A DNA stretch of 64,000 bases, taken from NCBI RefSeq assembly GCF_003334255.1, contig NZ_QOWU01000013.1, one strand, 5' to 3'. Below the pieces are notes generated by a model. It worked only from the letters and a program-made list of their open reading frames with translations. It was not told the DNA's origin and searched no databases. Positions 52,047-54,238 of this stretch are shown piece by piece. The translations under genes were made by a program, and so were the position numbers. Position 1 is the first letter of the stretch. Each line of letters begins with the position of its first letter. The DNA comes from Escherichia coli (GTDB taxonomy: Bacteria > Pseudomonadota > Gammaproteobacteria > Enterobacterales > Enterobacteriaceae).

Positions 52047-53198
52047 ATGTCACTTGTCACCGATCTACCCGCCATTTTCGATCAGTTCTCTGAAGCTCGC
52101 CAGAAAGGCTTTCTCACCGTCATGGATCTCAAGGAGCGCGGCATTCCGCTGGTTGGCACCTACTGCACCTTTATGCCGCAAGAGATCCCGATGGCAGCCG
52201 GTGCAGTTGTGGTTTCGCTCTGTTCCACCTCTGATGAAACCATTGAAGAAGCCGAGAAAGATCTGCCGCGCAACCTCTGCCCGCTGATTAAAAGCAGCTA
52301 CGGCTTCGGCAAAACCGATAAATGCCCCTACTTCTACTTTTCTGATCTGGTGGTCGGTGAAACCACCTGCGACGGCAAAAAGAAAATGTATGAATACATG
52401 GCGGAGTTTAAGCCTGTTCATGTGATGCAGTTACCGAACAGCGTTAAGGACGATGCCTCGCGTGCATTGTGGAAAGCCGAGATGCTGCGCTTGCAAAAAA
52501 CGGTAGAAGAACGTTTTGGGCACGAAATTAGCGAAGATGCTCTGCGCGATGCCATTGCGCTGAAAAACCGCGAACGTCGCGCACTGGCTAATTTTTATCA
52601 TCTTGGGCAGTTAAATCCTCCGGCGCTTAGCGGCAGCGACATTCTGAAAGTGGTTTACGGCGCAACCTTCCGGTTCGATAAAGAGGCGTTGATCAATGAA
52701 CTGGATGCAATGACCGCCCGCGTTCGTCAGCAGTGGGAAGAAGGCCAGCGACTGGACCCGCGTCCGCGCATTTTAATCACCGGCTGCCCGATTGGCGGCG
52801 CAGCAGAAAAAGTGGTGCGCGCGATTGAAGAGAATGGCGGCTGGGTTGTCGGTTATGAAAACTGCACCGGGGCGAAAGCGACCGAGCAATGCGTGGCAGA
52901 AACGGGCGATGTCTACGACGCGCTGGCGGATAAATATCTGGCGATTGGCTGCTCCTGTGTTTCGCCGAACGATCAGCGCCTGAAAATGCTCAGCCAGATG
53001 GTGGAAGAATATCAGGTCGATGGCGTAGTTGATGTGATTTTGCAGGCGTGCCATACCTACGCGGTGGAATCGCTGGCGATTAAACGTCATGTGCGCCAGC
53101 AGCACAACATTCCTTATATCGCTATTGAAACAGACTACTCCACCTCGGATGTCGGGCAGCTCAGCACCCGCGTCGCGGCCTTTATTGAGATGCTGTAA
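52047..53198 (+). CDS. yjiM: 2-hydroxyacyl-CoA dehydratase / double-cubane-cluster-type Fe-S protein YjiM
   Basis: ORF frame trimmed to MSLVTDLPAIFDQF (383 aa). Several conserved-looking cysteines are present (GTYCTF, NLCPLIK, ETTCDGKKK, TGCPIGG, ENCTGAK, QACHTY). Confidence 0.9.
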   Translation: MSLVTDLPAIFDQFSEARQKGFLTVMDLKERGIPLVGTYCTFMPQEIPMAAGAVVVSLCSTSDETIEEAEKDLPRNLCPLIKSSYGFGKTDKCPYFYFSDLVVGETTCDGKKKMYEYMAEFKPVHVMQLPNSVKDDASRALWKAEMLRLQKTVEERFGHEISEDALRDAIALKNRERRALANFYHLGQLNPPALSGSDILKVVYGATFRFDKEALINELDAMTARVRQQWEEGQRLDPRPRILITGCPIGGAAEKVVRAIEENGGWVVGYENCTGAKATEQCVAETGDVYDALADKYLAIGCSCVSPNDQRLKMLSQMVEEYQVDGVVDVILQACHTYAVESLAIKRHVRQQHNIPYIAIETDYSTSDVGQLSTRVAAFIEML

Positions 53199-53207
53199 GG
53201 AGTGGCA

Positions 53208-53975
53208 GTGGCATATTCGATTGGCATTGATTCCGGCTCAACCGCCACCAAAGGGATCTTACTGGCAGACGGCGTGATTACGCGCCGTTTCCTCGTTCCA
53301 ACCCCCTTTCGCCCGGCAACAGCAATTACTGAAGCCTGGGAAACTCTGTGCGAAGGGTTAGAAACAACGCCGTTTCTGACGCTCACCGGCTACGGACGGC
53401 AACTGGTGGATTTTGCCGATAAACAGGTGACGGAAATCTCCTGTCACGGGCTGGGCGCACGGTTTCTTGCGCCAGCAACGCGCGCAGTAATCGACATCGG
53501 TGGGCAGGACAGCAAAGTGATTCAGCTTGATGACGACGGTAACCTGTGCGATTTCCTGATGAATGACAAATGCGCGGCGGGCACCGGGCGTTTCCTGGAG
53601 GTGATCTCGCGCACGCTTGGCACCAGCATCGAGCAACTCGACAGCATTACCGAAAATGTCACGCCGCACGCGATCACGAGTATGTGTACGGTGTTTGCCG
53701 AATCAGAAGTGATCAGCCTGCGCTCAGCGGGCGTCGCGCCAGAAGCGATTCTCGCTGGAGTGATTAACGCGATGGCGCGGCGGAGTGCCAATTTCATTGC
53801 TCGTCTCTCCTGTGAAGCGCCGATTCTGTTTACTGGTGGCGTTAGTCATTGCCAGACGTTTGCCCGGATGTTGGAAACTCACCTGGGAATGCCGGTAAAT
53901 ACCCATCCTGATGCGCAATTTGCTGGCGCAATTGGCGCAGCGGTAATTGGTCAACGAGTGAGAAAACGCCGATGA
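53208..53975 (+). CDS. yjiL: BcrAD/BadFG-type ATPase (dehydratase activator / archerase) YjiL
   Basis: GTG start at 53208 preceded by AAGGAG (255 aa). It has the IGIDSGSTATKG ATPase motif and the cluster-bridging cysteine context NDKCAAGTGRF. Confidence 0.9.
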   Translation: MAYSIGIDSGSTATKGILLADGVITRRFLVPTPFRPATAITEAWETLCEGLETTPFLTLTGYGRQLVDFADKQVTEISCHGLGARFLAPATRAVIDIGGQDSKVIQLDDDGNLCDFLMNDKCAAGTGRFLEVISRTLGTSIEQLDSITENVTPHAITSMCTVFAESEVISLRSAGVAPEAILAGVINAMARRSANFIARLSCEAPILFTGGVSHCQTFARMLETHLGMPVNTHPDAQFAGAIGAAVIGQRVRKRR

Positions 53976-54238
53976 AAGAGTTTTTATTTTTATTTCACTC
54001 CACGGTCGGCGTCATACAAACCCGTAAGGCGTTGCAGGCAGCGGGCATGACTTTTCGCGTCAGCGATATTCCCCGTGATTTACGCGGCGGCTGCGGGTTA
54101 TGCATTTGGCTGACCTGTCCGCCCGGCGAGGAAATACAATGGGTGATCCCTGGGCAGACCGAAGCGATATATTGCCAGCAGGGCAGCGACTGGCAGTGCG
54201 TGGTGCATTACGATTCAGAAGCGTCAACCAGGCAATAA
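53972..54238 (+). CDS. DUF3343-like small protein, translationally coupled to yjiL
   Basis: 88-aa ORF whose ATG overlaps the yjiL stop (ATGA). FLFLFHSTVGVIQTRKALQAAGMTFRVSDIPRDLRGGCGLCI fits the DUF3343 pattern (F.ST..a...K.L...G......P......CG..I). Confidence 0.7.
   Translation: MKEFLFLFHSTVGVIQTRKALQAAGMTFRVSDIPRDLRGGCGLCIWLTCPPGEEIQWVIPGQTEAIYCQQGSDWQCVVHYDSEASTRQ

Follow-up and report, generated by a model that had tools for sequence, protein, structure and literature searches.

Organization of the yjiM-yjiL-ytiA locus

Three consecutive genes, yjiM, yjiL and ytiA, are described here from a 64,000-nucleotide stretch of Escherichia coli DNA (contig NZ_QOWU01000013.1 of assembly GCF_003334255.1); this whole stretch is referred to below as the window. 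Their products appear to be a double-cubane-type reductase, an ATPase that would supply it with electrons and a small protein of the DUF3343 family. An earlier reading made from the letters of the DNA (hereafter the sequence-only reading) had regarded them as a tightly coupled cassette. The features of the locus are as follows:

51932..52046, + strand: yjiN-yjiM intergenic region, 115 nucleotides (the yjiN open reading frame ends at 51931)
52047..53198, + strand: yjiM, with ATG at 52047 and TAA at 53196-53198; 383 amino acids, 11 cysteines
53199..53207, + strand: yjiM-yjiL spacer GGAGTGGCA, 9 nucleotides, read from the sequence
53208..53975, + strand: yjiL, with GTG at 53208 (the RefSeq start of yjiL) and a TGA ending at 53975; 255 amino acids
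53972..53975, + strand: ATGA overlap of the ytiA start and the yjiL stop, likewise read from the sequence
53972..54238, + strand: the third open reading frame, an allele of ytiA; 88 amino acids, reading MKEFLFLFHSTVGV...IPRDLRGGCGLCIWL

The coordinates, the gap of nine nucleotides, the ATGA overlap and the 88-amino-acid open reading frame given in the sequence-only reading were all confirmed. A Shine-Dalgarno sequence, AAGGA, lies at 52037-52041, 5 nucleotides upstream of yjiM, and that of yjiL, GGAG at 53199-53202, falls inside the spacer itself. The overlap at yjiL/ytiA is, judged from its four letters, a signature of translational coupling. The sequence from 51900 to 54600 is identical to the chromosome of E. 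coli ATCC 11775 / DSM 30083 (NZ_CP033092.2), and the yjiM-yjiL-ytiA region was found in 5387 of 5426 complete E. coli genomes.

The three genes are very probably one operon, and we infer that they are co-transcribed. The yjiN-yjiM intergenic region (51932..52046) is presumed to be the promoter region of the trio. However, a scan of 51850-54600 for sigma-70 promoters and terminators placed nothing in the yjiN-yjiM gap or 3' of ytiA, and a scan for FNR boxes (TTGAT-N4-ATCAA, with up to two mismatches) found none in either place; the counts from the sigma-70, terminator and FNR scans were all at shuffle level. The region from 51932 to 52046 is without a sigma-70 consensus or an FNR-like box, yet published RNA sequencing shows the levels of yjiM and yjiL changing together with those of genes for anaerobic fermentation.

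YjiM as a double-cubane-type reductase

YjiM matched the Pfam family PF06050 (HGD-D) with an E value of 6.7e-122 and the NCBIfam equivalog NF040772 (double-cubane-cluster anaerobic reductase) with 532.2 bits (cut-off 350) over profile positions 1-372 of 372. Among solved structures, its closest relative is the double-cubane protein of Carboxydothermus (6ENO/7YYL; E 5.9e-75, 39% identity). Seven cysteines of YjiM (C40, C59, C78, C108, C273, C302 and C335) were present in all 82 sequences of an alignment that takes in the E. coli query and DCCP_Ch of Carboxydothermus; they align with cysteines of 6ENO, and their order and spacing are within 1-4 residues of the published seven-cysteine motif. The alignment of YjiM with 6ENO begins only at DCCP residue 62, and therefore YjiM lacks the N-terminal extension. 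The matches to PF06050, NF040772 and 6ENO bear out the placement in the sequence-only reading, where YjiM was put in the 2-hydroxyacyl-CoA dehydratase/BcrC superfamily as kin of the double-cubane protein. By homology YjiM belongs to the HgdB/BcrC superfamily as a member of the double-cubane type and is, more narrowly, a predicted class II reductase with a double-cubane [8Fe-9S]-type cluster. Jeoung et al. have likewise counted YjiM, paired with YjiL, among the probable double-cubane proteins of 'class II'.

Two better-known assignments were rejected. As a 2-hydroxyacyl-CoA dehydratase, YjiM scored 95 bits against a cut-off of 700 for HadC and 20 against 750 for HadB, and there is a single HGD-D gene. 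As a class I benzoyl-CoA reductase, the YjiM/YjiL pair scored 79 against 454 for BzdN, 60 against 421 for BcrC and 164 against 380 for BzdQ, with one gene per type.

The gene bears the name yjiM in RefSeq, and its protein product is known from mass spectrometry. In a ygfI mutant the transcripts of yjiM and yjiL fall along with those of hyc, pflB, frd and dmsA (PMC9068703), which suggests an anaerobic or fermentative role for the two genes.

YjiL as an HgdC-type ATPase

YjiL contains FLMNDKCAAGTGRF and matched PF01869 with an E value of 2.2e-75 and TIGR00241 with 361 bits against a cut-off of 125. Among solved structures it matched 4EHT and 1HUX (E ~3e-52) as well as the DCCP reductase 7YYL_E (E 4.6e-47). 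C79, C122 and C160 are conserved in all 60 orthologues compared (60/60); C122, within NDKCAAGTG, and C160 align with 4EHT where members of that family bridge a [4Fe-4S] cluster. At the N terminus the sequence reads GIDSGSTATKG, the ASKHA phosphate-binding motif. YjiL is a BcrAD/BadFG (HgdC-type) ATPase and presumably acts as an ATP-dependent [4Fe-4S] electron donor to YjiM; the sequence-only reading had also recognized it as such an ATPase with NDKCAAGTG, a motif that is indeed present, and the two family matches agree with it.

The ytiA gene and its product

The 88-amino-acid open reading frame matched PF11823 (formerly DUF3343, now 'Se_S_carrier') with an E value of 3.6e-13 and 49.2 bits, above the gathering threshold of 25. 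It contains FHST...IPRDLRGGCGLCI, the pattern from which the sequence-only reading had proposed DUF3343 similarity, a proposal that holds. The same reading took the third gene to be unannotated in K-12, and this was mistaken, as it is ytiA (b4715, YP_009518833.1) in MG1655. The entries read 'uncharacterized protein YtiA' in MG1655 and 'DUF3343 domain-containing protein' in W3110 (WP_000657675.1), the latter being the RefSeq name throughout E. coli, and a ytiA coding sequence was annotated in 29 of 29 sampled E. coli RefSeq records carrying the region. No DUF3343 member has been experimentally characterized (PMC5322559), and 'carrier' is therefore a name and not a finding.

Homologues of ytiA occur in Escherichia, Citrobacter, Klebsiella, Raoultella, Kosakonia, Phytobacter and Atlantibacter, and also in Aeromonas. 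Codons 1-61, compared with 13 other enterics, gave proportions of nonsynonymous and synonymous differences of 0.10-0.29 (pN) and 0.61-0.78 (pS), respectively, the synonymous sites being saturated; ytiA is, by this comparison, under purifying selection. Among 23 enteric YtiA sequences residues 1-45 are near-invariant and the C-terminal third is variable. P34, C41, G42 and L43 are invariant in enterics and C44 is nearly so. Family-wide (20 DUF3343 sequences), F8 of strand 1, P34 and C41 alone never vary, with G42 kept in at least 90%, which gives the signature P-x6-C-G; C44 is not conserved, the motif being GCGLA in Aeromonas and the residue A or S in about half of the family. Two features inside the gene are of interest here:

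54071..54103, + strand: signature loop of ytiA, codons 34-44 (PRDLRGGCGLC), with C41 encoded by TGC at 54092-54094 and C44 at 54101-54103
54155..54238, + strand: divergent 3' end of ytiA, codons 62-88, of which codons 62-85 are 60% identical to K-12 in nucleotides

In the AlphaFold2 model of YtiA (predicted local distance difference test score 88.5) the protein is a ferredoxin-like beta-alpha-beta-beta-alpha-beta-beta sandwich, in which the loop of residues 33-42 lies between strands 2 and 3 and C41 stands at the loop end. A search of the PDB with the YtiA sequence gave chance-level matches alone (best E 0.049), and thus no solved homologue by sequence.

A profile search of 1.8 billion representatives returned 117 YtiA relatives at E <=1e-3. 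Among its long proteins no informative gene fusion was found. Three representatives of ~217 amino acids (P0245, P0263 and P0264) carry a match to the YtiA profile after a C-terminal BcrAD/BadFG part and were rejected as fusions: Pfam confirmed both a BcrAD fragment and PF11823 in P0245, which nevertheless looks like yjiL/ytiA read-through, and in the other two the BcrAD part alone was Pfam-significant, with apparent read-through across the yjiL/ytiA junction. All three are probably read-through or frameshift products at the ATGA junction in assemblies. Two further proteins, P0281 and P0295, are unrelated repeat proteins whose matches were spurious.

The YtiA of K-12 has 85 amino acids. Codons 1-61 of the two alleles are 98% identical in nucleotides with no nonsynonymous change, and the megablast match to K-12-type genomes stops at window position 54182; the divergence of the 3' end reads as an abrupt allele or recombination boundary within the gene. 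This boundary adjoins a pentapeptide-repeat gene (EspX6-like; 54550-56643) that is missing from K-12. The latter gene, between ytiA and yjiK, encodes 697 amino acids, and its O157 version is named in RefSeq as the type III secretion system effector EspX6. It includes a 24-nucleotide tandem repeat (7.5 copies, 56365-56544) encoding (S/N)DS(I/T)(E/D)KQA units.

Conservation of the three-gene order

Orthologous loci were collected by a pattern scan derived from the alignment of YjiM and DCCP, with one genome per species, which gave 80 loci at 55-92% identity to YjiM out of at least 577 relatives. The order yjiM-yjiL-DUF3343 was found in all 21 gammaproteobacterial loci (Enterobacteriaceae and three Aeromonas). 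Where the start of the DUF3343 gene could be placed, it overlapped the yjiL stop by ATGA, GTGA or TTGA in 18 of 19 loci, with ATGG in the remaining one (L017); the other two of the 21 have a hidden Markov model match to DUF3343 at the same place. The genes flanking the trio differ between genera on both sides, and therefore the trio behaves as a self-contained module. It is thus a real module of three genes, and the tight coupling claimed for the cassette in the sequence-only reading stands, the module being kept in Enterobacteriaceae and Aeromonas while the flanks vary.

The other 59 loci are almost all from Firmicutes. A YjiL-type ATPase is encoded beside yjiM in 21/21 gammaproteobacterial loci and in 42/59 of the others, and a DUF3343 gene lies within 8 kb of the YjiM orthologue in 11 of the 59. 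A small divergent cysteine protein immediately after yjiL was looked for in the Firmicutes loci, and none was found. About 12 loci of Lachnospiraceae (Dorea, Sellimonas and others) encode a YjiM orthologue (55-58% identity) with no YjiL-type ATPase within 8 kb (L051, L056, L059-L061, L066, L070, L071, L074, L077, L080 and L082), and the electron donor would thus be encoded elsewhere or be a different one there.

Five loci of class I double-cubane proteins, one of them encoding a protein with 97% identity to the DCCP of known structure, consist of just the two genes, and neither DUF3343 nor a selenium gene lies within 8 kb of them. Hence the third gene goes with the class II clade of YjiM, not with double-cubane systems as a whole. 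Various, unrelated genes adjoin these class I pairs. In Carboxydothermus islandicus (L084, 321-9510) the pair stands next to the gcvT/H/P glycine-cleavage genes and a lipoate ligase gene; a ferredoxin:thioredoxin-reductase-like gene neighbours the pair of Paradesulfitobacterium and a weak 2-thiouracil-desulfurase-like gene that of Thermincola. The neighbours of these last two pairs lie at L089 10022-10654 and L086 7213-7761.

Upstream of the trio, Raoultella, Citrobacter and Klebsiella carry, just 5' of yjiM, genes for a second MetC-type cystathionine beta-lyase (NF005990, 750 bits), an SDF-family symporter and a LysR regulator (L004 4003-5193, L007 3694-4968, L003 5395-6321, with equivalents in L013 and L015). 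A DUF2164 gene (~79 amino acids) often stands immediately before yjiM in the same three genera. E. coli has none of these.

Selenium genes near YjiM orthologues

In the survey of neighbourhoods, the neighbouring open reading frames were clustered and one representative per recurrent cluster was named by Pfam and NCBIfam. DUF3343 genes were recognized by a local profile built from enteric and representative sequences, NCBIfam being without a model that names them. The following families occurred in the neighbourhoods of Firmicutes YjiM orthologues (score against cut-off):

YedF: TIGR03527, 203 against 110
Selenocysteine lyase SclA: NF040779, 715 against 525
SelD: TIGR00476, 371 against 125
YqeB: TIGR03309, 381 against 220
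YqeC: TIGR03172, above cut-off
MocA: TIGR03310, above cut-off
Selenium-dependent xanthine dehydrogenase (SeXDH): TIGR03311, 1535 against 830
DUF3343: local profile

At least one of SelD, YedF, SclA and DUF3343 was encoded within 8 kb in 13 of the 59 non-gammaproteobacterial loci. The YjiM orthologues in this selenium context are 55-70% identical to E. coli YjiM and occur in several gene orders and in at least seven genera, among them Clostridium, Enterococcus, Eubacterium, Dorea, Holdemanella, Claveliimonas and a metagenome-assembled genome of Desulfotomaculaceae. SelD itself lay within 8 kb in 5/59 loci, versus ~0.5% by chance (a rough estimate for a single-copy gene in a 3-Mb genome). Four of the gene orders were:

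L024: YjiM-YjiL-SelD-YedF-DUF3343-YqeC-MocA-YqeB
L037: YjiM-YjiL-SeXDH-MocA-SclA-SelD-YedF-DUF3343
L044: YqeC-MocA-YqeB-SclA-YedF-DUF3343-YjiM-YjiL
L069: DUF3343-SelD-YedF-YqeB-SclA-YjiM-YjiL

The sulfur/selenium association that the sequence-only reading ascribed to DUF3343 proteins is thus stronger than claimed for the whole trio, by way of these Firmicutes SelD-YedF-SclA-DUF3343 clusters with YjiM/YjiL orthologues. Previous studies point in the same direction. Haft and Gwadz, who built NF040772, placed 955 of its 970 members in genomes that encode SelD and suggested that the family might process selenium or have a cluster bridged by selenium (bioRxiv 10.1101/2022.07.06.499078). Lin et al. 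(2015) proposed DUF3343 as a Se/S chaperone (PMC5322559), and the STRING table of the same study lists, in the consecutive Slackia genes Shel_25420-25470, an activase, DUF3343, a selenocysteine lyase, YedF, DUF3343 and an HgdD-like protein. DCCP and its reductase also occur in methyl-selenide gene clusters, and DCCP has been 'provisionally linked to selenium metabolism' (PMC10418091).

In three loci of the present sample (L056, L059 at 10302-13632, and L065), yjiM stands beside genes for a corrinoid protein, an MtaA-like methyltransferase and a RamA/AcsV-like activase. This context corresponds to the 'type 1 mlp gene cluster', for which demethylation of methyl-selenides has been proposed (PMC10418091).

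Comparison with known systems

The nearest known system is DCCP with its reductase DCCP-R in Carboxydothermus hydrogenoformans (CHY_0487/0488; PDB 6ENO, 7YYL). YjiM has the fold, the family and the seven motif cysteines in common with DCCP; both genes adjoin one for a BcrAD/BadFG ATPase, and the order of reductase then ATPase and the minimal gap are alike. However, YjiM is ~38 residues shorter than DCCP, lacking the N-terminal stretch with which DCCP narrows its substrate channel, and is thus 'class II' (PMC7317905). Moreover, the E. coli module has a coupled third gene whereas the five class I DCCP loci have none. Binding of [8Fe-9S] belongs to the Carboxydothermus DCCP, to which YjiM is compared through its sequence.

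YtiA (88 amino acids) resembles the DUF3343 'putative Se/S carrier' proteins of Lin et al. (2015; PMC5322559) in family, in the size of 80-100 amino acids and in the conserved single cysteine. The Firmicutes DUF3343 genes that accompany YjiM orthologues lie in YedF/SclA/SelD clusters, whereas E. coli ytiA is placed within the yjiML unit, away from yedE/yedF, selD and a lyase gene. It is the sole DUF3343 gene in the window. The neighbourhood of YedF, lyase and SelD, from which the family took its name, is missing in the window, but this is a matter of context and not of sequence, and YtiA stays in the Pfam family PF11823.

The 2-hydroxyacyl-CoA dehydratases (HgdAB/HadBC with HgdC/HadI) and the class I benzoyl-CoA reductases (BcrABCD/BzdNOPQ) share the superfamily of both YjiM and YjiL and, as the YjiM/YjiL pair would, inject electrons with an HgdC-type 'archerase' ATPase driven by ATP. 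On the other hand, they have an alpha/beta pair or four subunits, respectively, where E. coli has a single HGD-D gene, and a three-cysteine [4Fe-4S] motif where YjiM has seven cluster cysteines. The nitrogenase-like methylthio-alkane reductase MarHDK is a functional analogue alone, possibly alike as an ATP-dependent low-potential metallocluster reductase that frees a bound chalcogen; its fold and cofactor are unrelated to those of YjiM. Among mlp gene clusters of type 1, MarHDK goes with the 'sulfur' clade and DCCP/DCCP-R with the 'selenium' clade (PMC10418091).

Possible function of the module

The three genes probably work together. The mechanism that we favour would begin with a YjiL homodimer bridged by a [4Fe-4S] cluster, in which ATP hydrolysis would drive a low-potential electron into YjiM; the injection of electrons into the YjiM cluster is suggested because of homology with 7YYL. 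The class II active site of YjiM, being more open, would accept something larger than acetylene. YtiA would be a small cytosolic ferredoxin-like protein with the family-invariant C41 on an exposed loop (P-x6-C-G), and C41 could carry a chalcogen, selenium in the first place and sulfur in the second, as a Cys-S-Se(H) or Cys-S-S(H) adduct. YtiA would then either present this adduct to the YjiM cluster or take up the selenide or sulfide freed there. The module as a whole would reductively free selenide from oxidized or organically bound selenium, and the selenide would pass to SelD and the selenium-dependent enzymes. To the reading of an ATP-driven reductase with a cysteine carrier that mobilizes selenium or sulfur by this mechanism we assign a probability of about 0.4. 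The contact of YtiA with YjiM/YjiL, the carried atom and the substrate would all be as supposed here.

A narrower form can also be stated, in which the trio is a dedicated ATP-driven selenium-mobilizing reductase, with selenium held on Cys41 and the class II cluster reducing Se(0), mixed S-Se species or organoselenium to selenide for SelD and the selenium-dependent molybdenum hydroxylases. This narrower form is doubtful. For the favoured mechanism as a whole, the Se(0)/HSe- couple is very negative, ~-0.7 V being usually quoted, and an ATP-boosted reductase would therefore be chemically sensible.

Several points weigh against a role in selenium or sulfur mobilization. Thiol-bound selenium is reduced by ordinary thiol systems, and an ATP-driven step is not obviously needed. 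Selenium genes were absent within 8 kb in 46 of the 59 non-gammaproteobacterial loci, and no homologue of SelD, YedF, SclA, YqeB, YqeC or MocA was found in the window of E. coli. A DUF3343-like small open reading frame stood directly 3' of yjiL in 0/59 non-gammaproteobacterial loci; the conservation and co-occurrence by which the sequence-only reading proposed to check the third gene thus hold for the trio order in the 21 gammaproteobacterial loci but not for adjacency to yjiL in the 59 others. The survey consisted of an 80-locus sample of at least 577 relatives with crude calling of open reading frames, and its families were named from one representative per cluster. The co-occurrence with SelD may merely mirror an anaerobic lifestyle. 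Finally, the literature on ytiA, b4715, and DCCP and selenium yielded no experiments that address what YjiM, YjiL or YtiA do.

The same genes could be explained in other ways. A generic low-potential reductase unrelated to selenium might be encoded, YjiML acting on an organic substrate (a CoA ester or another refractory molecule) and YtiA serving as a redox or regulatory accessory, e.g., a CxxC (C41/C44) thiol-disulfide partner. Such a role would suit the HgdB/BcrC superfamily of YjiM, the reduction of acetylene and hydrazine by the Carboxydothermus enzyme in vitro, the lack of selenium genes around the E. coli trio in the window, the CGLC motif of enteric YtiA and the suggestion of a fermentative or anaerobic role from the joint fall of yjiM and yjiL with hyc, pflB, frd and dmsA in the ygfI mutant (PMC9068703). 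However, the second cysteine of that motif is lost in Aeromonas (GCGLA) and replaced by A or S in about half of the family, and YjiM is far under every equivalog cut-off for CoA dehydratases and benzoyl-CoA reductases. Moreover, the clustering of orthologues with SelD/YedF/SclA and the co-occurrence of 955/970 members with SelD would be left unexplained, and we consider an organic substrate unlikely, although it has to be taken seriously.

The selenium link could be accommodated differently if YtiA were a maturation factor of the cofactor, supplying apo-YjiM with the sulfide that bridges the [8Fe-9S] cluster or, for a variant bridged by selenium, with selenide. To explain the link to SelD, Haft names a double cubane bridged in this way by selenium as formally possible, and a lone invariant loop cysteine would be typical of persulfide relay proteins. 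Against this, DUF3343 is absent within 8 kb of the five class I loci, and the Carboxydothermus protein binds [8Fe-9S]; DUF3343 is also not found near many YjiM orthologues, and it is widespread outside double-cubane genomes (PMC5322559). A maturation role of YtiA is thus judged quite improbable. It could also be that ytiA is a passenger, a small conserved gene with an independent function that came to follow yjiL by chance. The C-terminal third of YtiA is poorly conserved and exchanged between E. coli lineages, and Firmicutes have yjiML pairs with no adjacent DUF3343 gene. Nevertheless, the overlap has been kept wherever the start is readable in Enterobacteriaceae and Aeromonas, except in L017, despite saturated synonymous divergence and full turnover of the flanks. 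A DUF3343 gene lies within 8 kb in 11/59 other loci versus ~1-2% expected (a rough estimate for few copies in a 3-Mb genome), and DUF3343 adjoins an activase in an actinobacterium too (PMC5322559). Chance placement is very improbable in the face of these observations, and the reading of a reductase with a chalcogen carrier remains the one that we prefer.

Significance of the module

All three genes had already been catalogued, and both the family assignments and the selenium link are already known from databases and papers on bioinformatic grounds. What is added here is the coupling of DUF3343 to yjiL in Enterobacteriaceae and Aeromonas, the absence of DUF3343 from five class I loci and the presence of class II orthologues inside SelD/YedF/SclA/YqeBC clusters. 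These additions sharpen a testable hypothesis and do not constitute a new kind of system.

To our knowledge, a nitrogenase-like cluster combined with ATP-boosted electrons occurs outside nitrogenases only in the double-cubane [8Fe-9S] proteins, and no physiological substrate is known for any of them. Likewise, the source of selenide and its hand-over to SelD inside cells are unsettled. The trio of E. coli is compact (~2.2 kb) and genetically tractable, and its orthologues elsewhere stand among selD, yedF, sclA and yqeB/yqeC, so that both the substrate question and the selenide question are open to simple knockouts. If the narrower, selenium-mobilizing form is true, a double-cubane enzyme would for the first time have a physiological substrate, and the module would be the in vivo source of selenide that is still missing in E. 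coli.

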